Origin: Escherichia coli
Lineage (GTDB): Bacteria > Pseudomonadota > Gammaproteobacteria > Enterobacterales > Enterobacteriaceae
Length of the DNA: 64,000 nucleotides
Assembly (NCBI RefSeq): GCF_045037415.1
Contig: NZ_CP173438.1
Direction: 5' to 3' (one strand)
The notes beneath the pieces are model-generated. The model had not been told where the DNA came from. It searched no databases and saw only the letters and a list, made by a program, of their open reading frames with translations. The first letter of the stretch is position 1. Each line of letters begins with the position of its first letter. The position numbers and the translations under genes were made by a program. Below are positions 1,893 to 34,425 of this stretch, one piece after another.

Positions 1893-4800
1893 TTACTCGT
1901 TATCAGAACCGCCCAGACCTGCGTTCAGCAGTTCTGCCAGGCTGGCAGATGCGTCTTCTGCAGTCACCTGCGGTGCAGCCGGAGCTTCACCCGCAGCACG
2001 GCGACGCATACGATCCTGGTGGTACGCGTAACCGGTACCTGCCGGGATCAGACGACCCACGATAACGTTCTCTTTCAGGCCGCGCAGTTCGTCGCGTTTG
2101 CCCGCAACGGCTGCTTCGGTCAGCACGCGAGTGGTCTCCTGGAACGATGCCGCGGAGATGAAGGACTCGGTTGCCAGAGACGCTTTGGTAATACCCAGCA
2201 GATCGCGGGAGTAAGTTGCACCCACTTTACCGTTCGCTTCCAGTTCGCGGTTTGCGATCTTGACGCGAGAGTATTCAACCTGTTCACCTTCCAGGAAGTC
2301 GGAGCTGCCCGCGTTAACGATGGTAGCTTTACGCAGCATCTGACGAACGATAACTTCGATGTGTTTATCGTTAATCTTAACGCCCTGCAGACGGTATACG
2401 TCCTGTACTTCGTTAACGATGTAACGAGTCACAGCATGAACACCACGCAGACGCAGAATGTCGTGCGGCGCTTCCGGACCGTCGGAAATTACGTCACCAC
2501 GTTCTACACGTTCACCTTCGAACACGTTGAGCTGACGCCATTTCGGAATCATCTCTTCGTACGGATCGCTACCGTCTACCGGGGTGATAACCAGACGACG
2601 TTTACCTTTGGTTTCTTTACCGAAGGAAACGATACCGCTGATTTCAGCCAGGATTGCCGGCTCTTTCGGACGACGTGCTTCGAACAGGTCCGCAACGCGC
2701 GGCAGACCACCGGTGATGTCCTTGGTACCGCCGGATTCCTGCGGAATACGCGCCAGGGTGTCACCAGAGCTGATCTGTACGCCATCTTCCAGCTGAACAA
2801 TCGCTTTACCCGGCAGGAAGTACTGCGCAGGCATATCGGTACCCGGGATCAGAACGTCGTTACCCTGAGCATCAACGATTTTCAGTGCCGGACGCAGATC
2901 TTTACCACCTGCGGTACGTTCTGCGGAATCCAGAACCACCAGCGAAGACAGACCGGTCAATTCGTCGGTCTGACGAGTAATGGTCTGGCCGTCGATCATG
3001 TCAGTAAAGCGTACAAAACCGCTTACTTCGGTGATAACCGGCATGGTGTGCGGGTCCCAGTTTGCAACGGTTTCGCCGCCAGCAACCTGTTCGCCATCGC
3101 CTTTCGCCAGTACCGCACCGTAAGGTACTTTGTAGCTTTCTTTGGTACGACCGAATTCGTCGATCAGTTTCAGTTCGGTGTTACGGGAAGTGATAACCAG
3201 TTTACCGCTGGAGTTCACAACCGACTTCACGTTGCTGAGCTTGATGCTACCTTTGTTTTTCACCTGGATGCTGGATTCAGCAGCCGCACGAGATGCCGCA
3301 CCACCGATGTGGAACGTACGCATGGTCAGCTGTGTACCCGGTTCACCGATGGACTGTGCCGCGATAACACCGATTGCTTCACCTTTATTGATGATGTGGC
3401 CACGCGCCAGGTCACGACCGTAGCAGTGCGCACATACACCAAAGTCGGTGTCACAAGATACAACAGAACGTACTTTAACCGCGTCGACAGAGTTCTCTTC
3501 CAGCAGGTCACACCACTGTTCGTGCAGCAGCGTGTTGCGCGGAACGAGGATATCAGCAGTACCCGGCTTCAGAACGTCTTCAGCAGTTACACGACCCAAT
3601 ACGCGATCGCGCAGCGGCTCTTTAACGTCACCACCCTCGATAACCGGAGTCATCATGATACCTTCATGGGTACCACAATCGTCTTCGGTAACCACCAGGT
3701 CCTGCGCCACGTCAACCAGACGACGAGTCAGGTAACCGGAGTTCGCCGTTTTCAGTGCGGTATCCGCCAGACCTTTACGAGCACCGTGGGTGGAGATGAA
3801 GTACTGGAGTACGTTCAGACCTTCACGGAAGTTCGCGGTGATTGGCGTTTCGATGATGGAGCCATCCGGCTTCGCCATCAGACCACGCATACCAGCAAGC
3901 TGACGAATCTGTGCCGCAGAACCACGCGCACCGGAGTCGGCCATCATGTAGATGCTGTTGAAGGAAACCTGCTTCTCTTCCTGACCGTCACGGTTAATAA
4001 CGGTTTCAGTTTGCAGGTTATCCATCATCGCTTTGGATACACGATCGTTCGCCGCAGCCCAGATATCGATAACTTTGTTGTAGCGTTCGCCCGCAGTTAC
4101 CAGACCAGACTGGAACTGCTCCTGAATTTCAGCAACTTCTGCTTCTGCCTCGGAGATGATTTCGTGTTTCTTCTCCGGGATGACCATGTCATCGATACCA
4201 ACAGATGCACCAGAACGCGCTGCATATGCAAAGCCGGTATACATGATCTGGTCCGCAAAAATAACGGTCGGTTTCAGACCGAGAATGCGGTAGCAGGTGT
4301 TCAGCATTTTGGAGATTGCTTTTTTACCCAGCGCCTGGTTGACGATGGTGTAAGGCAGACCTTTCGGTACAATCATCCACAGAATGGCACGGCCAACAGT
4401 CGTGTCTTTCAGGCTGGTTTTCGCCACTAATTCACCGTTAGCATCTTTTTCATACTCGGTGATACGCACTTTAACGCGCGCATGCAGAGAAGCCAGACCA
4501 GAGCGATACAGACGTTCTGCTTCTTTCGGGCCAGTCAGCACCATGCCTTCGCCTTTGGCGTTAACACAGTCGCGGGTCATGTAGTACAGACCCAGTACAA
4601 CGTCCTGAGACGGAACGATGATTGGTTCGCCGTTCGCCGGGGACAGGATGTTGTTGGTAGACATCATCAGCGCACGCGCTTCCAGCTGGGCTTCCAGCGT
4701 CAGCGGTACGTGAACGGCCATCTGGTCACCATCGAAGTCGGCGTTATATGCCGCACAAACCAGCGGGTGCAGCTGGATAGCTTTACCTTCGATCAGTACC

Positions 4801-6116
4801 GGTTCAAATGCCTGGATACCCAGACGGTGCAGAGTCGGTGCACGGTTCAGCAGTACCGGGTGTTCGCGGATAACTTCGTCCAGGATATCCCAAACGACAG
4901 CTTCTTCGCGCTCAACCATTTTCTTCGCAGCTTTGATGGTGGTAGCAAGACCACGCAGTTCCAGCTTGCCGTAGATGAACGGTTTGAACAGCTCCAGCGC
5001 CATTTTCTTCGGCAGACCGCACTGATGCAGACGCAGGTATGGACCTACGGTGATTACAGAACGACCGGAGTAGTCAACACGCTTACCGAGCAGGTTCTGA
5101 CGGAAACGACCCTGTTTACCTTTGATCATGTCGGCCAAAGATTTCAGAGGACGCTTGTTAGAACCGGTGATTGCACGACCGCGACGACCGTTATCCAGCA
5201 GGGCGTCTACCGCTTCCTGCAGCATACGTTTTTCGTTACGTACGATGATATCCGGCGCAGCCAGGTCCAGCAGACGTTTCAGACGGTTGTTACGGTTAAT
5301 GACGCGACGATACAGATCGTTCAGGTCAGAAGTCGCGAAACGACCACCATCCAGCGGAACCAGCGGACGCAGATCTGGCGGCAGTACCGGCAGAACGGTC
5401 AGGATCATCCACTCTGGTTTGTTACCAGACTGAACGAACGCTTCCAGCAGTTTGATACGCTTGGTCAGCTTTTTACGCTTGGTTTCGGAGTTGGTTTCGT
5501 TCAGCTCTTCACGCAGCTGTTCGCACTCTTGCTCCAGATCCATGCTCTTCAGCAGGGCCTGGATTGCTTCCGCCCCCATCTTCGCGTCGAATTCGTCACC
5601 GAACTCTTCCAGCGCGTCCAGATACTGCTCTTCAGTCAGGATCTGCTGACGCTCCAGGTTGGTCATACCACCTTCGATAACCACATAGGATTCGAAGTAC
5701 AGTACGCGTTCGATATCGCGCAGCGGCATATCGAGCAGCAGGCCGATACGGGACGGCAGCGATTTCAGGAACCAGATGTGCGCAGTCGGGGAAGCCAGTT
5801 CGATGTGGCCCATACGCTCACGGCGTACTTTAGTCTGGGTCACTTCAACGCCGCACTTCTCACAGATGACGCCACGGTGTTTCAGGCGCTTGTACTTACC
5901 GCACAGGCACTCGTAATCTTTTACCGGCCCAAAGATACGGGCGCAGAAAAGGCCGTCACGTTCTGGTTTGAACGTACGGTAGTTGATGGTTTCCGGCTTT
6001 TTAACTTCACCGAAAGACCATGAACGGATCATGTCTGGCGAAGCCAGAGCAATTTTGATCGCATCAAACTCTTCGGTTTTAGTCTGCGCTTTCAGAAACT
6101 TTAATAAATCTTTCAC
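1893..6116 (-). CDS. rpoC: DNA-directed RNA polymerase subunit beta' (RpoC)
   Basis: 1407 aa; catalytic NADFDGDQM motif; 76-bp gap to rpoB. Confidence 0.98.
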
Positions 6117-6192
6117 GGATTTGCTCCCGTCGGAGTTAGCACAATCCGCTGCCGGGTTTTACCCCGACAGCAGTGACCTGTTTGAGCGAGAA

Positions 6193-9100
6193 TTACTCGT
6201 CTTCCAGTTCGATGTTGATACCCAGCGAACGAATCTCTTTCAACAATACGTTGAAGGATTCTGGCATGCCCGGCTCCATCTGATGGTTGCCGTCCACGAT
6301 GTTTTTATACATCTTAGTACGACCGTTCACGTCATCAGACTTAACGGTGAGCATTTCCTGCAGGGTGTATGCTGCGCCGTATGCTTCCAGCGCCCACACT
6401 TCCATCTCCCCGAAACGCTGACCACCGAACTGTGCCTTACCACCCAGCGGCTGCTGAGTAACCAGGCTGTAAGAACCGGTGGAACGCGCGTGCATCTTGT
6501 CGTCGACCAGGTGGTTCAGTTTCAGCATGTACATGTAACCAACGGTTACCGGACGTTCGAACTGTTCACCAGTGCGACCGTCGTACAGGCGGATCTGACC
6601 AGAAGTCGGCAGGTCGCCAAGTTTCAGCAGCTCTTTAATTTCTGCTTCTTTCGCACCGTCGAAGACCGGCGTTGCGATTGGCATACCTTTGCGCAGGTTT
6701 TCAGCCAGACGCATAACTTCTTCATCGCTGAAGGTACTCAGGTCAACTTTCTGACGAACATCAGCGCCCAGATCGTACGCACGCTGGATGAATTCGCGCA
6801 GTTTCGCGACTTCTTGCTGCTGTTTCAGCATGGCGTTGATCTTGTCGCCGATACCTTTCGCAGCCATACCCAGGTGGGTTTCGAGGATCTGACCAATGTT
6901 CATACGAGACGGTACGCCCAGCGGGTTCAGTACGATGTCTACCGGAGTACCGTTTTCATCGTAAGGCATATCTTCGATCGGGTTGATCTTAGAAATTACA
7001 CCCTTGTTACCATGACGGCCTGCCATCTTGTCACCAGGCTGGATACGGCGTTTAACCGCCAGATATACCTTAACAATCTTCAGCACGCCCGGTGCCAGAT
7101 CGTCGCCCTGGGTGATTTTGCGGCGTTTCGCTTCGAGTTTCTTCTCGAACTCGTGTTTCAGTTCGTCATACTGCTCAGCCAGCTGTTCCAGCTGATTTTG
7201 TTTCTCTTCGTCGGTCAGGCCCAGCTCCAGCCAGCGATCGCGCGGCAGTTTGTCGAGCTTCTCAGCTTCAACGCCACCGGCTACCAGCACAGCACGGATA
7301 CGGCTGAACAGACCTGCTTCGAGGATCTGCAGTTCTTCAGACAGGTCTTTCTTCGCCTGTTTGAGCTGCATTTCTTCGATTTCCAGCGCACGTTTATCTT
7401 TTTCTACGCCATCGCGAGTAAAGACCTGAACGTCGATAACCGTACCGGATACACCGTTTGGTACGCGCAGAGAAGAGTCTTTAACGTCAGACGCTTTCTC
7501 ACCGAAGATCGCACGCAGCAGTTTTTCTTCTGGGGTCAGCTGAGTTTCACCTTTCGGCGTTACCTTACCAACCAGAATGTCGCCACCGGTCACTTCCGCA
7601 CCAATGTAAACGATACCGGATTCATCCAGTTTGGAGAGCGCAGCTTCACCCACGTTCGGGATGTCAGCGGTGATCTCTTCCGGCCCCAGCTTGGTATCAC
7701 GGGACACACACGCCAGTTCCTGAATATGGATGGTGGTGAAACGGTCTTCCTGAACAACACGCTCGGATACGAGGATGGAGTCTTCGAAGTTGTAACCATT
7801 CCACGGCATGAACGCTACGCGCATGTTCTGACCAAGCGCCAGTTCACCGAGGTCGGTGGACGGACCGTCTGCCAGCACGTCGCCACGTTCTACCGGTTCA
7901 CCCAGAGACACACACGGCATCTGGTTGATACAGGTGTTCTGGTTAGAACGGGTGTACTTGGTCAGGTTGTAGATGTCGATACCTGCTTCACCCGGATACA
8001 TCTCGTCTTCGTTAACTTTGATAACGATACGGGAAGCATCCACGTACTGAACGACACCACCACGTTTAGCAACCGCAGTTACACCAGAGTCAACGGCAAC
8101 AGCACGTTCCATACCCGTACCAACCAGCGGCTTATCAGCACGCAGAGTCGGAACGGCCTGACGTTGCATGTTCGCACCCATCAATGCACGGTTGGCGTCA
8201 TCGTGTTCCAGGAACGGGATCAGGGACGCACCGACGGATACCACCTGCTGGGTGGATACGTCCATGTAGTCAACCTGGTCGCGGCTGAACAAGCTGGATT
8301 CGCCTTTGCTACGGCAAGTTACCAGGTCTTCTACGAAGTGGCCTTCTTCATCCAGGTTGGAGTTCGCCTGGGCGATAACGTAGTTGCCTTCTTCGATAGC
8401 AGACAGATAGTGAATTTCGTCAGTTACAACACCGTCGGTCACTTTACGATACGGAGTCTCAAGGAAGCCGTATTCGTTAGTCTGTGCGTACACGGACAGG
8501 GAGTTGATCAGACCGATGTTCGGACCTTCAGGGGTTTCGATTGGACATACGCGACCGTAGTGAGTCGGGTGTACGTCTCGAACTTCGAAGCCTGCACGTT
8601 CACGGGTCAGACCGCCTGGGCCGAGTGCCGAGATACGACGTTTGTGCGTAATCTCAGACAGCGGGTTGTTCTGGTCCATAAACTGAGACAGCTGGCTGGA
8701 ACCGAAGAACTCTTTCACTGCTGCGGAAATCGGCTTGGCGTTGATCATATCCTGAGGCATCAGGGTATCCAGATCGCCCAGAGACAGACGCTCTTTCACC
8801 GCACGCTCTACACGTACCAGGCCAACGCGGAACTGGTTTTCCGCCATTTCGCCAACAGAACGGATACGACGGTTGCCGAGGTGGTCGATATCATCGACTT
8901 CGCCTTTACCGTTACGGATATCGATGAGCTTTTTCATAACATCAATGATGTCGTCTTTGCTCAGGATACCGGAACCTTCGATTTCTTCGCGCAGCAGAGA
9001 ACGGTTGAACTTCATACGACCAACCGCAGACAGGTCATAGCGGTCTTCGGAGAAGAACAGGTTCTCAAACAGGCTTTCAGCTGCTTCACGAGTCGGCGGC

Positions 9101-29056: not shown

Positions 29057-29416
29057 TTACTCAGCAACGTCCTGCTTACGGTTACGCATCTTCGCGCCAA
29101 TCCAGAACACCATAATGACGGACAGTACTGCCGGGAAGAAGTTGGAACCGATATCCGGATATTCCGCACGAACTACCGTGCTGTACAGCAGTACGCCGAG
29201 AATAAAACAAGCAGCTGCCAGACCCGGCAAGCCTACCGGCATAGTGCGATTAAGATAACGTTGATGCAGGCAGTAAACTGTCAACACCAGGGAAATAATC
29301 GGGAATACAGAAAATGGTACAATGGAGCTAAACAGCGCTGCGAAAGTACCATTAATCGATAAGCCAGCCACTAGCGCCAGCAGCAGCGTACCTCTATCTT
29401 GATTTGCTTGTTTCAT
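29057..29416 (-). CDS. yijD: Inner-membrane protein YijD
   Basis: 119 aa, hydrophobic; immediately downstream of fabR. Confidence 0.9.
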
Positions 29417-30063
29417 TACTCGTCCTTCACATTTCCCGGAATAATTGCGGTTTTCTCTTGTTCACGGCGATACCAGTAATAAGCCCCTTTCGAAATCATT
29501 CGCAGCTGCAGTACCAGTCGCTCTTCTAATTGCCGACGTTGCTCGACGCCGACATCCAACGCCTCGGCCCCCGCACTGAAGACAATCGTCACCATTGCTT
29601 CGGCTTGCGCTTCAGTAAACGCACGCGGCATATGGTTTTCGAGTTCCAGATAGTCCGCAAGTTCCGCAATGAAGTGCTGAATTTCACGCGCAACGGCGGC
29701 ACGAAACGCAGCGGAGGTGCCGGAGCGTTCCCGCAATAATAACCGGAAGGCGTTAGGATTATTACCGATGAACTCCATAAATGTGGAGACCGAGGTGCGG
29801 ATCACACTCCCGCCTTTGGCGATACGCTGACGCGCCTGACGCATGAGTTGGCGTAGCATTAAACCGCTCTCATCAACCATGGTCAGACCCAGTTCGTCTA
29901 CGTCGCGGAAATGCCGATAAAAAGAGGTGGGAGCAATGCCTGCTTCTCGTGCCACTTCACGCAAACTCAGGCTGGCGAAGCTGCGTTCAGCACTTAATTG
30001 GCTAAATGCGGCTTCCACCAGCGAACGGCGGGTTTTTTCTTTTTGTTGCGCTCTTACGCCCAT
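29416..30063 (-). CDS. fabR: TetR-family repressor of unsaturated fatty-acid biosynthesis
   Basis: Track ORF is 247 aa; trimmed to [10 protein letters not shown] (215 aa); the start is ambiguous and longer versions begin at 30120 or 30159. Confidence 0.85.
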
Positions 30064-30169
30064 CACGATGTCTGAATCCTTGCCAAAAGTACTGCTGGCA
30101 CTATACCAGAGAATGAACATACTGGATTGCTCCAGTGTTGTGAATGAACGGTAACGCAATAAAACATAT

Positions 30170-31486
30170 TTACTGCAATTCTTTGGCCGGTTCTTTTACG
30201 TACAACAACGCCAGCATCGACAGCAACGTGCCTCCACCCAGATACCACGCCGGAGCCGTCAGACTATCCAGCAACACGATGGATTGCGTAGCGAAATATT
30301 GAGCAAAACCGCCAAAGATTGCCACACCAATGCTATAAACCAGCGCAAAACCCAATGCCCGAATCCGTTTCGGCAACAGTTCAGAGATCAACAACATCAC
30401 TGGCACACCGCCAAGCGTGGTAAAGCTGACCATCACGAAAACCACCGTCAGCAACATGCCAGGGCTTGGGTAATTCACCAACAGCCAGAATGACGGCCAG
30501 CTACAGAGAAGCACCATCACACGGGAGATTAAAATCAGCTTTTTACGCCCGACCGAATCGCACAACATCCCCACAAGCAGCGCACCCACAAACGTAACAA
30601 CGCCCGCCAGTAACATCGCTGCATGAGAATAATGTTGAGGCATCGCCAGATACTTCGCCGCCCAGGTGCCGTAATAAAAGAGGGAGATATAGGTTGCGAC
30701 CGTGCTACCAATAGCGAGTAAAACGCCATTAACGATAGTCGCCTTATGTTGCAGGAGCAGAGAAAACGCGCTTTCGCTGGTAGCAGCTTTTTTATTGCGC
30801 ACAGGCTCAGGTACGTCATTTTCCAGGCTCAGACGCAACCAGCAACCGATAGGTGCTAATAACACACCAATAAAAAACGGCACACGCCAGCCCCATTCTG
30901 CCATTACGGTTTCTGAACCTGTGGCGAACGGTAGCCATGCGCTTAAACCTAAAGCGACAACACCGCCAAAAGTTGTTGCCAGGCCTTGAGTCGCCAGTGA
31001 CCAACTGCTGTAAAAGCCACGACGATTTGCCGGAGCTGACTCCACCAGTAGCGACATTGAAGCCCCGACTTCACCACCTGCCGCAACGCCCTGAATCAAA
31101 CGCGCCAGCACCAGCGTTGCGGTTCCCCAATAGCCCGCCGTTTCATACGTCGGTGCGATGCCGATCATCAGCGTACCGAGGCTCATCAGAGCAATAGTGA
31201 ACACCATCGCCGGTTTACGCCCGAAGCGATCGGCCCAGGCACCAACGATAATCCCACCGAGCGGACGCATAAAAAAGCTCACACCAAACGTTGCAAATGC
31301 CAGTAACAGCGCGACGTTATGATCGGCACTGGGTGGGAAGAAAAGCGTACTGATATAGACCACAAAAAAGTTGTAAACGCCAAAATCAAAAAATTCGAGC
31401 GCATTGCCAAACGCCGAGGCAAAGATCACCCGCCTGCCGCTGGGCTTTTTCTTCACACTCACGGTTTCATTTACGATCGCCGTCAT
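30170..31486 (-). CDS. MFS transporter, metabolite:H+ symporter-like
   Basis: 438 aa, multi-spanning hydrophobic profile; N-terminal [12 protein letters not shown] and loop GWADRFGRK motifs typical of MFS; not present at this position in K-12 as I recall it. Confidence 0.8.
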
Positions 31487-31528
31487 TCCATGTTCCTTGC
31501 CAAAAAGTGTTGTTGTGTGTTGTTTTAT

Positions 31529-32695
31529 TTATTGCAGCCAGGCTTCAACCAGTGCGCCCCAGTAGCTGCTTGCCGGGACCAGGCTTGCATCGTTAAAGTC
31601 GTAACCGGGGTTATGCACCATGCAGGAACCTTCCCCGACATCGCCATTACCGAATAACAGGAAACCGCCTTTGGGTTGGGCCTCCAGCATGAAAGAGAAA
31701 TCTTCACTGCCCATCAGGGGTTTGATGCCAAACTCAGCCCGATCTTCACCAAATGTTTTGCACGCCACCTGCCAGGCGAAGCGCGCCATCTCCTCGTCAT
31801 TTACTAATACCGGTGTACCGTTAACATGCGTAACCTCAGCCGTAGCGCCAAAGCTGGCAGCCTGGGTTTGTGCAAGAGCAGGAATACGGGTCAGAAGAAG
31901 TTGTCGGGTATCGCGGCTAAGAGAGCGGACACTGATTTTCATCTCAGCACTGTCAGGAATGACGTTAGCCGCCTCACCCGCAACAATGCTGCCGACGGTA
32001 ATTACCGCCGCTTCCAGCGGATCGACATTGCGCGACACAATGCTTTGTAATGCGGTGGTGATATGTGCGGCAACCAGCACTGGATCGATGGCTTTGTGCG
32101 GGATCGCACCGTGTCCGCCACAACCACGAACCGTAATATGGAACTGATCCATTGACGCCATCAGCGCCCCAGGCTGGAAGAAAAACTTGCCGACCGGCAA
32201 ACCCGGCATGTTGTGCATCCCGAAAATGACATCGCAGGGGAAACGATCAAAAAGCCCCTCTTTAACCATGATCTCACCGCCGTTAATCATCTCTTCCGCT
32301 GGCTGGAAGATAAGGCGTAACGTGCCGTTAAAACGGCGGGTTTCGGCAAAATAACGCGCGGCCCCCAGCAGTATGGTGGTATGCCCGTCATGCCCGCAGG
32401 CGTGCATTAAACCAGGATGTTTACTGGCCCAGGGCTTGCCACTATTTTCATAAATCGGCAACGCATCCATATCCGCCCGCAGGCCAATACTTTTCTCTCC
32501 GTCGCCCACTTTTAACGTGGCTACCACGCCGGTTGTCGCCAGCCCTTGCTCAACCTCATAGCCCCACTGGCGCAGCTTTTCCGCAACCAAAGCACTGGTT
32601 TTAAATTCTTGTAATCCCAGCTCCGGGTTTTCGTGGATCTGATGGCGGATCTCGCGAAGTTCTTCCTCAAACCCACGAATATAGTGTTCGATCAT
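31529..32695 (-). CDS. M20D-family amidohydrolase (hippurate hydrolase / N-acyl-amino-acid amidohydrolase-like)
   Basis: 388 aa; metal-binding ACGHDGH motif; 42-bp gap to the downstream MFS gene suggests a two-gene operon. Confidence 0.8.
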   Translation of the reverse strand: MIEHYIRGFEEELREIRHQIHENPELGLQEFKTSALVAEKLRQWGYEVEQGLATTGVVATLKVGDGEKSIGLRADMDALPIYENSGKPWASKHPGLMHACGHDGHTTILLGAARYFAETRRFNGTLRLIFQPAEEMINGGEIMVKEGLFDRFPCDVIFGMHNMPGLPVGKFFFQPGALMASMDQFHITVRGCGGHGAIPHKAIDPVLVAAHITTALQSIVSRNVDPLEAAVITVGSIVAGEAANVIPDSAEMKISVRSLSRDTRQLLLTRIPALAQTQAASFGATAEVTHVNGTPVLVNDEEMARFAWQVACKTFGEDRAEFGIKPLMGSEDFSFMLEAQPKGGFLLFGNGDVGEGSCMVHNPGYDFNDASLVPASSYWGALVEAWLQ

Positions 32696-33024
32696 CGGCT
32701 ATTCCTTTATTCACTTATAAACAGGCTAATTAACGGATTTTATTGATGGTATAAATACAAATAACCCATCAATATAAAATATTTATACATTTGTTTTATA
32801 AGAAGATTTCATAAAGACAATAACAAAAAAGCACGCTTCGGCAAGATAAAACTATCAGCCATAAGAAAAAGCGATTAATAGTGAATAAATAAAATAAGAA
32901 GGAGGAAGACAAAGCAAAGGCCGCTCACGATATAGCCAGATAAATGACGGGGATCAATTGGCTTACCCGCGATAAAATGTTACCATTCTGTTGCTTTTAT
33001 GTATAAGAACAGGTAAGCCCTACC

Positions 33025-34425
33025 ATGCCACATTCCTACGATTACGATGCCATAGTAATAGGTTCCGGCCCCGGCGGCGAAGGCGCTGCGATGGGCCTGG
33101 TTAAGCAAGGTGCGCGCGTCGCAGTTATCGAGCGTTATCAAAATGTTGGCGGCGGTTGCACCCACTGGGGCACCATCCCGTCGAAAGCTCTCCGTCACGC
33201 CGTCAGCCGCATTATAGAATTCAATCAAAACCCACTATACAGCGACCATTCCCGACTGCTCCGCTCTTCTTTTGCCGATATCCTTAACCATGCCGATAAC
33301 GTGATTAATCAACAAACGCGCATGCGTCAGGGATTTTACGAACGTAATCACTGTGAAATATTGCAGGGGAACGCTCGCTTTGTTGATGAGCATACGTTGG
33401 CGCTGGATTGCCCGGACGGCAGCGTCGAAACACTAACTGCTGAAAAATTTGTTATTGCCTGCGGTTCTCGTCCATATCATCCAACAGATGTTGATTTCAC
33501 CCATCCACGCATTTATGACAGCGACTCAATTCTTAGCATGCACCACGAACCGCGCCATGTACTTATTTACGGTGCTGGAGTGATCGGCTGTGAATATGCG
33601 TCGATCTTCCGCGGTATGGATGTAAAAGTGGATCTGATCAACACCCGCGATCGCCTGCTGGCATTTCTCGATCAAGAGATGTCAGATTCTCTCTCCTATC
33701 ACTTCTGGAACAGTGGCGTAGTGATTCGTCACAACGAAGAGTACGAGAAGATCGAAGGCTGTGATGACGGTGTGATCATGCATCTGAAGTCGGGTAAAAA
33801 ACTGAAAGCTGACTGTCTGCTCTATGCCAACGGTCGCACCGGTAATACCGATTCGCTGGCGTTACAGAACATTGGGCTGGAAACTGACAGTCGCGGACAG
33901 CTGAAGGTCAACAGCATGTATCAGACCGCACAGCCGCACGTTTACGCGGTGGGCGACGTGATTGGTTATCCGAGCCTGGCGTCGGCAGCCTATGACCAGG
34001 GGCGCATTGCCGCGCAGGCGCTGGTGAAAGGTGAAGCCACCGCACATCTGATTGAAGATATCCCTACCGGCATTTACACCATCCCGGAAATCAGCTCTGT
34101 AGGCAAAACCGAACAGCAGCTGACCGCGATGAAAGTGCCATATGAAGTAGGCCGCGCCCAGTTTAAACATCTGGCACGTGCACAAATCGTCGGCATGAAC
34201 GTGGGCACGCTGAAAATTTTGTTCCATCGGGAAACAAAAGAGATTCTGGGTATTCACTGCTTTGGCGAGCGCGCTGCCGAAATTATTCATATCGGTCAGG
34301 CGATTATGGAACAGAAAGGTGGCGGCAACACTATTGAGTACTTCGTCAACACCACCTTTAACTACCCGACGATGGCGGAAGCCTATCGGGTAGCTGCGCT
34401 AAATGGCTTAAACCGCCTGTTTTAA
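33025..34425 (+). CDS. sthA: Soluble pyridine nucleotide transhydrogenase
   Basis: 466 aa; FAD-binding GSGPGG; 3' end overlaps oxyR convergently. Confidence 0.95.

Follow-up and report, generated by a model that had tools for sequence, protein, structure and literature searches.

We analyzed a window of 64,000 nucleotides from Escherichia coli (contig NZ_CP173438.1, assembly GCF_045037415.1), focusing on the interval between the divergent core genes fabR and sthA. This interval holds two intact open reading frames in the ORF list, both on the fabR (minus) strand: a gene for an M20D-type amidohydrolase/aminoacylase, followed by a gene for a permease of the major facilitator superfamily (MFS) (Table 1). 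An earlier description made from the DNA letters alone (the sequence-only reading) had placed an accessory module at 30064-33024; the locus was right, but the truly variable segment lies slightly inside these bounds.

Table 1. Features of the fabR-sthA locus, in positions of the window
Feature	Position	Strand	Basis and remarks
fabR	29416-30066	-	Flanking core gene; NCBIfam FabR equivalog 413.6 bits; RefSeq annotation
fabR promoter-like site TTCACA-17-TATGTT	30116-30144	-	Consensus scan match only; 3' of transporter stop
Escherichia-specific DNA relative to the Salmonella empty site	30148-32955, about +/-10 nt		Aligned K-12, Salmonella and Serratia intergenic regions
MFS permease gene, metabolite:H+ symporter (MHS) type, 438 aa	30170-31486	-	RefSeq name "citrate-proton symporter"
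Last 35 nt of transporter ORF, K-12 deletion scar	30170-30204	-	Read from sequence
Segment differing between alleles	30205-32906		2702 bp here, 74-nt filler in K-12 type; blastn junctions against MG1655
Intercistronic spacer, 42 nt	31487-31528	-	AAGGAA ribosome-binding site 5' of transporter ATG
M20D (TIGR01891) amidohydrolase/aminoacylase gene, 388 aa	31529-32695	-	CFT073 c4924, "putative hippuricase"
Divergent regulatory region common to operon and sthA	32696-33024		329 nt, 33% GC
Inverted repeat TTTTATTGATGG-N16-CCATCAATATAA	32738-32777		Candidate operator; 12-nt arms, 92% complementary
AT-rich motif	32774-32802	-	78 nt upstream of M20D ATG
sthA	33025-34425	+	Flanking core gene; NCBIfam SthA equivalog 805.7 bits; RefSeq annotation

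fabR and sthA lie 2958 nt apart in the window, against 330 nt in MG1655; the net difference of 2628 nt agrees with the "about 2.6 kb" first estimated, and K-12 lacks both genes. Since no terminator-like site was seen in the 42-nt spacer, we treat the two genes as one operon. Their GC content (0.52 and 0.54) and third-position GC content (GC3; 0.57 and 0.58) match those of the neighboring genes, and no regulator gene adjoins the pair at the locus. The spacing, the shared strand, the E. coli-like composition and the missing regulator had all been described in the sequence-only reading and were borne out. We saw no integrase, transposase, tRNA or flanking repeats around the module at this locus. 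The part of the ancestral intergenic region with the fabR promoter-like site is common to K-12 and, partly, to Salmonella. Overall, the pair is real and intact but ordinary: it is already annotated in RefSeq, and a 2010 comparative study listed it as a UPEC-associated gene set (PMC2831201).

The assignment of the first protein to the M20D family, originally made from its ACGHDGH metal site, was confirmed by profile searches. The protein matched Pfam PF01546 (Peptidase_M20, E=5.7e-44, residues 72-384) and PF07687 (M20_dimer, E=8e-13, residues 184-279), such that the catalytic domain is interrupted by the lid/dimerization domain, as expected for the family. It scored 358.3 bits against the NCBIfam model TIGR01891 (cut-off 153.75). 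Metal-ligand motifs were found at residues 98 (HACGHDGH), 131 (QPAEE), 159 (GMHN) and 361 (HNPGYDF), and all five Cys/His/Glu/His/His metal-ligand motifs align with those of YxeP (E=2.4e-71 in PDB) and ILL2 (4.1e-69). A signal peptide is absent. The protein thus has the domain layout and the five metal-ligand motifs of known M20D/TIGR01891 members such as Bacillus subtilis YxeP (1YSJ), Arabidopsis ILL2 (1XMB), the Corynebacterium N-alpha-acyl-glutamine aminoacylase (6SLF) and Campylobacter jejuni HipO. Unlike any one characterized member, it is approximately equidistant from all of them (218-244 bits against PDB relatives), and it missed the NCBIfam equivalogs that it resembles, namely the CpsA carboxypeptidase, its second-best NCBIfam match (336 bits, cut-off 500), and the DoeB2 deacetylase (321.9 bits, cut-off 550). 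Because of this equidistance, and since no equivalog-level model was passed, the substrate specificity of a known enzyme is not transferable to this one. Our literature searches found no published enzyme assay of a c4924-type M20D protein.

The second protein matched Pfam PF00083 (Sugar_tr, 115.6 bits, E=3.6e-33) and PF07690 (MFS_1, 97.7 bits). Its hydropathy profile shows about 12 hydrophobic segments, with peaks consistent with about 12 transmembrane helices, and the MFS motif A occurs twice, as DRFGRK after TM2 (residue 86) and as DSVGRK after TM8 (residue 310). The best NCBIfam match was TIGR00883 (324.2 bits, cut-off 443.45), followed by TcuC (287 bits, cut-off 445) and then PRK10406, ProP and ShiA, all of them MHS members, in agreement with the original description of an MHS-like transporter. 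The protein shares with the MHS family (TC 2.A.1.6; TcuC, KgtP, CitA/CitH, ProP, ShiA) its best matches, the duplicated motif A and the number of segments, but it lies under every curated cut-off. This argues for a divergent MHS member whose substrate is not inferable from these models; the transport direction and class of substrate suggested below are drawn from family resemblance. A PDB search returned no close solved structure. Plasmid-borne enterobacterial MHS carriers were about 32% identical to the permease, with no match reaching 60%.

Comparison with MG1655 revealed that the K-12 interval is a remnant of the longer one. Nucleotides 1-138 of the K-12 intergenic region correspond to 30067-30204 of the window (99.3% identity by blastn), and of the Escherichia-specific DNA, K-12 keeps about 57 nt at the left and about 49 nt at the right end. 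Since K-12 retains the 3'-terminal 35 nt of the transporter gene as well as both of these ends, its state is the product of a deletion rather than the lack of an insertion: a single event replaced 2702 bp by a 74-nt filler. Local alignment of the filler with three module alleles gave a score within the range of shuffled sequences. The filler was not found elsewhere in E. coli genomes and had no match in phages; its "plasmid" matches were only megabase-sized E. coli replicons with the same locus. The sthA-fabR intergenic region of K-12 is thus what a deletion left behind and does not show the ancestral state; this matters when promoter maps of K-12 sthA and fabR are applied to other strains.

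The two alleles account for nearly all complete E. coli genomes (5423/5425). The module is present in 1505 of 5426, and one common K-12-type allele of scar plus filler, identical throughout, is carried by 3918 (about 72%). Carriers of the module include B2 strains (ST131, Nissle, ATCC 25922) and O157:H7, while the filler allele is found in K-12 (phylogroup A) and in 042 (phylogroup D). Since 042 (D) is without the module and O157:H7 (E) carries it, the pattern must be less simple than a single loss on a tree unless recombination has carried the one deletion allele between lineages. The pair belongs to the minor differences, not tied to islands, by which B2/UPEC and O157 strains depart from K-12-like ones. 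Occasional IS insertions were also observed among module loci.

Outside E. coli, the pair occupies the same locus in the same orientation in E. albertii and in contigs of cryptic-clade Escherichia, and the same synteny was seen in contigs with E. ruysiae-, E. whittamii- and Shigella-type proteins. In Salmonella and Serratia, by contrast, the site between sthA and fabR is empty. In the cryptic-clade contigs, the dS of the module (0.41-0.45) is similar to that of its flanks (0.29-0.41). The nearest relatives outside Escherichia are at most 63% identical and betaproteobacterial; a broad protein search for homologues in the intermediate range of identity was filled by near-identical E. coli entries and added no new ones. 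Because outgroup Escherichia carry the pair, the Salmonella and Serratia site is empty and K-12 has a remnant, the module was gained before the diversification of the genus and lost later. The gain, of approximately 2.8 kb between sthA and fabR, postdates the separation from Salmonella and predates the divergence of E. coli, E. albertii and the cryptic clades; the module has since been inherited vertically. The sequence-only reading, which had favored an old, strain-variable indel over a recent acquisition, was correct in this respect. Every lineage examined has intact ORFs; in E. albertii a stop comes three codons early. In every lineage pair compared dN/dS was 0.02-0.06, at dS up to 0.67 (0.03-0.06 for the M20D gene and 0.02-0.05 for the permease gene), which shows strong purifying selection on the two genes.

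The divergent regulatory region is conserved across Escherichia in length and sequence: its copies in E. coli B2, O157, E. albertii and the cryptic-clade contigs share 93-97% identity, while the dS of the neighboring genes is 0.3-0.5. The 211 nt upstream of the operon have a GC content of 27%. The inverted repeat in this stretch is largely kept in O157 and E. albertii. Scanning the regulatory region with simple motifs revealed no CRP, sigma-54 or Fur matches, and the region had no Rfam match. ATA-N9-TAT matches were set aside, given that chance alone would produce them at 27% GC. An AT-rich motif is reported to be enriched upstream of TosR-responsive CFT073 genes, and the published account gives for c4924 the same 78-nt distance that we found here (PMC5956150). 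When tosR was overexpressed, that account reports a log2 fold change of 6.6 for c4924, approximately 100-fold; the text and five supplementary files of the same paper contain no entry for c4925.

A hydrolase gene followed by an MHS gene is not confined to Escherichia. The arrangement recurs in nine loci of Burkholderia, Paraburkholderia and Pseudomonas (L006, L009, L011, L015, L018, L020, L027, L046 and L055), in the same order and on the same strand, with hydrolases 51-58% and permeases 36-45% identical to those described here. Unlike in Escherichia, these pairs, all of them uncharacterized, usually have a divergent LysR-type gene beside the hydrolase; beyond this gene, we found no other conserved neighbor, catabolic or otherwise. 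A related and better studied arrangement is the Pseudomonas putida KT2440 cluster of PP_2701 (LysR), PP_2703 (MFS) and PP_2704 (HipO), whose purified HipO showed strong hydrolysis of hippurate and weak hydrolysis of N-acetyl-L-alanine (bioRxiv 10.64898/2025.12.09.693157). Both systems place an M20D hydrolase next to an MFS transporter, but in KT2440 the transporter gene precedes hipO and a LysR gene adjoins them, whereas in Escherichia the hydrolase comes first and no regulator is adjacent. We considered whether the P. plecoglossicida locus (L018) could represent the P. putida hipO cluster and rejected it, as its upstream genes encode RHS proteins and it is a different cluster.

Within E. coli itself, abgR-abgABT serves the uptake and hydrolysis of p-aminobenzoyl-glutamate, with an M20-family amidohydrolase cleaving the aroyl-amino-acid amide bond in the cytoplasm. 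The initial comparison with abgT/abgAB holds as an analogy of logic, a transporter combined with an M20-family amidohydrolase, and the AbgB-like structure 3IO1 is a detectable relative of the enzyme. It does not hold in the components: AbgT is not an MFS protein, Abg has two M20 subunits and a LysR regulator where here there is one hydrolase gene, and the AbgB type is far more distant (125 bits for 3IO1) than YxeP (244 bits) or ILL2.

These observations are best read together as an ancestral Escherichia operon for the catabolism of N-acyl amino acids, which was lost in K-12 and most E. coli by a single old internal deletion; we regard this combined reading as probable. Uptake and hydrolysis of an N-acyl amino acid or a related amide is our best inference for the function of the pair. 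The MHS-type permease would import an anionic N-acyl-L-amino acid (hippurate-like or N-acetyl/N-acyl) by proton symport, and the M20D enzyme, holding two metal ions in its active site, would cleave the amide bond in the cytoplasm. The products, a free amino acid and a carboxylic acid, could then enter existing nitrogen and carbon metabolism. Transcription is predicted to start in the conserved upstream region of 27% GC. Judging from the AT content and the TosR response, the promoter is probably silent in laboratory culture through silencing of the H-NS type, and TosR, a PapB-family regulator, may derepress it by the roughly 100-fold reported. Given the strong conservation and this inducibility, a defined substrate could explain a niche trait. 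As known now, the pair is an ordinary uncharacterized catabolic operon.

A more specific proposal is that the enzyme is a HipO-type hydrolase of hippurate (N-benzoylglycine) and that the permease imports hippurate, which would allow B2 and O157 strains to gain glycine from a compound abundant in urine and gut. The names "hippurate hydrolase" and "putative hippuricase" in the sources point this way, as do the activity of the P. putida enzyme from a LysR-MFS-M20D cluster and an association of the KO hipO with UPEC clades (PMC4819403). However, the names were transferred at the level of the family, and among the Pseudomonas homologues compared the closest (P. plecoglossicida, 52.6% identical) is not from a KT2440-type cluster. 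Furthermore, characterized MHS carriers (TC 2.A.1.6) mostly move di-/tricarboxylates or zwitterions, not aromatic monocarboxylates. Direct tests also disagree: ATCC 25922, in which the module genes are intact, is hippuricase-negative (PMC12635141), and hydrolysis of N-benzoylglycine was reportedly negative in 42/42 E. coli strains (Perry 1998, as cited in PMC4867780). With an inducibility of approximately 100-fold, basal expression should be low, and activity could be masked in routine tests. Hippuricase-negative carriers thus mean either that hippurate is not the substrate or that the operon was silent in those assays. On balance, we find hippurate as the dedicated substrate rather unlikely. 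A peptidase resembling S. aureus SAPEP (dipeptidase) or Sulfolobus CpsA (carboxypeptidase), supplied by the permease with small peptides or modified amino acids, would fit the rank of the CpsA model, the match to the M20 peptidase 4ewt (218 bits in PDB) and the promiscuity of M20D enzymes between N-acyl amino acids and dipeptides. Yet the CpsA score is far under its cut-off, E. coli already takes up peptides via Opp, Dpp and POT systems, and MHS carriers are not known to transport peptides, making this quite improbable. The case for citrate (or tricarballylate) utilization starts from the RefSeq name of the permease, its second-best match to TcuC and the label "citrate metabolism" given to the pair, as SAC 14, in the 2010 survey (PMC2831201). 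Against it, all MHS models score below their cut-offs, the plasmid-borne enterobacterial MHS carriers are only distantly similar, and the partner conserved across phyla is an amidohydrolase and not an enzyme of a citrate pathway. E. coli, B2 and O157 included, is moreover classically citrate-negative in aerobic tests, and we consider a citrate module very unlikely. Both labels from the databases, "hippurate hydrolase" for the enzyme and "citrate-proton symporter" for the permease, are unverified guesses at the family level, at odds with E. coli being classically negative for hippurate and citrate.

Two further alternatives concern history rather than substrate. The pair could be a silent, non-functional relic drifting towards loss, as its loss from 72% of genomes, the occasional IS insertions, the early stop in E. 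albertii and the negative hippuricase tests might suggest; this is highly improbable in view of the low dN/dS in every lineage pair, the intact ORFs in all lineages examined and the conserved promoter region. It could instead be an islet specific to UPEC/B2 strains, recently inserted into a K-12-like ancestral site. Its absence from K-12 agrees with this, as does the 2010 survey, which scored the pair in B2 strains only (PMC2831201). But locus and orientation are the same in E. albertii, cryptic-clade contigs, Shigella and O157:H7, K-12 holds remnants of both segment ends, and the divergence of the module tracks that of its flanks. With native GC3 and with integrase, tRNA and flanking repeat absent, a recent insertion is extremely unlikely.

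The ancestral-operon reading can be extended, although we hold the extension to be unlikely as a whole. The module would be a normally silenced niche system of B2/O157-type E. coli for host- or diet-derived amino-acid conjugates, such as urinary or intestinal hippurate, other glycine or glutamine conjugates, or another N-aroyl amino acid. Presence and absence would form an old polymorphism kept by selection, with alleles exchanged across phylogroups by recombination. By removing 211 nt of highly conserved DNA, the deletion would in addition have rewired the control region upstream of sthA. Expression has also been recorded for a gene labeled "O157": ECs4893, which judging from gene order is probably the transporter gene, was up 2.09-fold at the growth transition (PMC2241611).

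The locus in the window reads btuB (-), trmA (+), yijD (-), fabR (-), two open reading frames (ORFs, both -), sthA (+) and oxyR (-). The sthA-fabR interval spans 2958 nt, compared with 330 nt in MG1655, where no gene lies between the two. The ORFs encode an M20D amidohydrolase (hereafter, the hydrolase) and an MFS transporter, which starts 42 nt past the hydrolase stop codon. The sequence-only reading had placed this pair on the fabR strand with that spacing, took it to be absent from K-12, assigned its products to M20D and metabolite:H+ symporter (MHS)-like proteins, and judged its composition E. coli-like. This description was correct wherever it could be checked: ORF coordinates agree with spacing and strand, the MG1655 gap is gene-free, Pfam and NCBIfam profile matches agree with both identities, and the GC and GC3 of both genes equal those of neighbouring genes. 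The observation is real, and its interpretation holds.

Features of the sthA-fabR region, in window coordinates
Feature	Position	Strand	Details
M20D amidohydrolase ORF	31529-32695	-	388 aa
MFS transporter ORF	30170-31486	-	438 aa
fabR	start 30066	-	216-aa form, RefSeq choice
fabR promoter-like site (candidate)	within the ancestral 103 nt 3' of the transporter stop		
Inverted repeat	32738-32777		inside the 211 nt gone from K-12
AT-rich motif	32774-32802		78 nt 5' of the hydrolase ATG

Alignment with MG1655 confirmed the absence and located both junctions. Nucleotides 1-138 of the K-12 intergenic region correspond to window 30067-30204 and its last 118 nt to window 32907-33024, with 74 nt between them that have no window counterpart (2306-2379 of the MG1655 locus, L001). 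As the left junction falls inside the transporter gene, K-12 keeps the transporter stop codon and last eleven codons. In Salmonella and Serratia, where the sthA-fabR gap is about 200 nt, homology to Escherichia ends on the fabR side at about window 30147 and restarts on the sthA side at about 32956; the Escherichia-specific segment is about 2.8 kb, and by these limits K-12 holds about 57 nt at its left end and about 49 nt at its right. We rejected the reading of the K-12 locus as an empty site because both segment ends are still present; sequence comparison identifies it as an internal deletion derivative. The 74-nt filler was found nowhere else in E. coli genomes, does not resemble module sequence, and had no match in phage and true plasmid collections.

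Surveying presence and absence across E. coli, as had been proposed, revealed a biallelic locus. The full module occupies the sthA-fabR locus in 1505 of 5426 complete genomes, and the K-12-type allele, always with identical junctions and identical filler, is found in 3918. Together, these alleles account for 5423 of the 5425 genomes with any match, making the locus a clean two-allele polymorphism that goes back to a single event. Module carriers include ST131/O25:H4 (100% identity to the window), EC958, UM146, Nissle, ATCC 25922, and O157:H7; K-12 (phylogroup A) and 042 (phylogroup D) carry the scar. By identity to the window, the modules form three groups, at least 99% (566 genomes), 95-99% (543), and 90-95% (398), the last consisting mostly of O157:H7 at 93.9%. 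With the module missing from 042 (D) but present in O157:H7 (E), homologous recombination must also have carried one of the two alleles, scar or module, from phylogroup to phylogroup. Individual genomes showed further changes: an IS1A element inside the module in the ST131-like O25:H4 strain CU568-3 (NZ_CP082775.1, 251077-255554), and an IS481-family transposase in the K-12-type intergenic region of UTME-10 (NZ_CP157104.1). RM13322 (NZ_CP050498.1) matched on the sthA side only, pointing to another rearrangement there. In IAI39 (NC_011750.1, 4515000-4560000), the rRNA operon after the yieP/mdtD side abuts murB-birA, an rrn-bounded rearrangement that places sthA off the coordinate predicted from K-12 or 042.

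Beyond E. coli, the gene order in E. albertii is oxyR-sthA-M20D-MFS-fabR-yijD-trmA-btuB, the two module genes showing 97% and 95% protein identity, and the same arrangement occurs in contigs with transporter variants that database sources attribute to E. ruysiae, E. whittamii, and Shigella. In the E. ruysiae-type and E. whittamii-type contigs, the flanks share 93-94% identity with the window, a level that cryptic clades would be expected to show, and dS is similar in the module (0.41-0.45) and in the flanks (0.29-0.41). The shared locus in E. albertii and cryptic-type contigs, together with the K-12 scar, bears out the suggestion of an old, strain-variable indel rather than a recent foreign gain. 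Judged by substitution patterns, the module genes are under purifying selection (dN/dS 0.02-0.06 in all comparisons). Among the matches listed for species representatives, the closest hydrolase outside Escherichia is from Silvimonas (63%), followed by Bordetella and Paraburkholderia (58%), and no other enterobacterial hydrolase is comparably close. In the simplest history, the pair would have been acquired after the Salmonella split and before Escherichia diversified, probably from a betaproteobacterium-like source, would then have descended vertically under purifying selection, and would last have undergone one deletion within E. coli. The O157-type transporter allele (2271-3587 of the O157:H7 locus, L002) is unusually divergent, as distant from the B2 allele as cryptic-clade alleles are, with dS of 0.37 against 0.08-0.13 in the flanks and 0.17 in the hydrolase; this points to a donor lineage that has not been sampled, or else to alleles of great age. 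In the E. albertii locus (L003, about 7156-7158), TGG to TGA three codons ahead of the normal M20D stop removes the last three residues. The Shigella chromosome CP026845.1 has sthA split into two ORFs and trmA truncated (562-1961 and 5969-6808 of its locus, L090); its M20D and MFS genes are intact.

The enzyme class of the hydrolase is well supported. Pfam finds a Peptidase_M20 domain (E=5.7e-44) into which M20_dimer is inserted, and the score of 358 bits for NCBIfam TIGR01891 "amidohydrolases" clears the curated threshold of 153.75. The protein reaches the cut-off of no equivalog-level NCBIfam model, and its sequence shows no signal peptide. In alignment with YxeP and ILL2, the M20D ligand motifs (Cys/His/Glu/His/His) are kept. 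Its relatives of solved structure (218-244 bits: YxeP, ILL2, N-alpha-acyl-glutamine aminoacylase, and an M20 peptidase) act on N-acyl-amino-acids or amino-acid conjugates. The transporter matches Sugar_tr and MFS_1 in Pfam, its top NCBIfam matches are all metabolite:H+ symporters (TIGR00883, 324 bits; TcuC, 287 bits), and it shares about 32% identity with MHS carriers encoded on enterobacterial plasmids.

Nine loci in Burkholderia, Paraburkholderia, and Pseudomonas repeat the hydrolase-then-MHS order, usually with a divergent LysR gene and with no further conserved neighbour, the mark of a self-contained uptake-and-cleavage unit whose products would feed into metabolism already in place. Among systems studied by experiment, the closest analogue we found is in P. 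putida KT2440, a cluster of PP_2701 (LysR), PP_2703 (MFS), and PP_2704 (HipO), whose purified HipO cleaves hippurate well and N-acetyl-L-alanine weakly (bioRxiv 10.64898/2025.12.09.693157). Based on enzyme family, recurring pair, and this analogue, we adopted an import-then-hydrolysis reading: the transporter would import an anionic N-acyl-L-amino acid coupled to protons, both direction and substrate being predicted, and the hydrolase would cleave its amide in the cytoplasm.

The specificities in the database names are not supported. E. coli is classically citrate-negative, and the transporter named "citrate-proton symporter" scores under the cut-off of all MHS models. As for "hippurate hydrolase", both genes are intact in ATCC 25922, which is hippuricase-negative (PMC12635141), and assays of N-benzoylglycine hydrolysis employ E. 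coli as their negative control, all 42 strains tested having been reported negative (PMC4867780). These hippurate-negative results are compatible with another substrate as well as with an operon that is silent.

The region between the hydrolase and sthA start codons (32696-33024) measures 329 nt in five of six lineages compared and 328 nt in the Shigella contig. With 93-97% identity across Escherichia, this non-coding region is far better conserved than adjacent synonymous sites (dS 0.3-0.5); an Rfam scan matched no known RNA family. K-12 lacks 211 nt of it (27% GC), and the two alleles may therefore differ in how sthA is controlled from upstream. The AT-rich motif at 32774-32802 is also given, at an equal distance from the ATG, for c4924, the CFT073 M20D gene ("putative hippuricase"), in the supplement of a study in which TosR overexpression in CFT073 raised c4924 by a log2FC of 6.6 (PMC5956150). 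TosR is a PapB-family regulator, which that study describes as predicted both to bind AT-rich DNA and to counteract H-NS and Lrp (PMC5956150). We infer an operon that is kept silent under ordinary culture conditions and is derepressible, with a putative role for H-NS.

The module is an accessory operon of well-known families that had been annotated and noticed before: RefSeq annotates both genes, and the KO hipO was associated with a UPEC clade in a metagenomic study (PMC4819403). A 2010 synteny survey reported the c4924-c4926 set, labelled "citrate metabolism", in F11, 536, UTI89, and E2348 and not in others (PMC2831201); O157:H7 was scored without it, which our detection of the module there contradicts. 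Our literature search found no published work characterising the pair. Our analysis shows in which direction the indel went and that it arose once, dates the operon to the level of the genus, and adds evidence of constraint and caution on names. The mechanically called fabR ORF reaches a TTG at 30159 (29416-30159, 247 aa), and some gene callers report 230-234 aa; such long forms would come to within 11 nt of the transporter stop, which probably explains the three colinear genes counted in 2010. An identical 12-mer, TTTTGGCAAGGA, lies directly 5' of the transporter and fabR start codons (31494-31505 and 30077-30088; blastn E about 0.1) and may be a coincidence.
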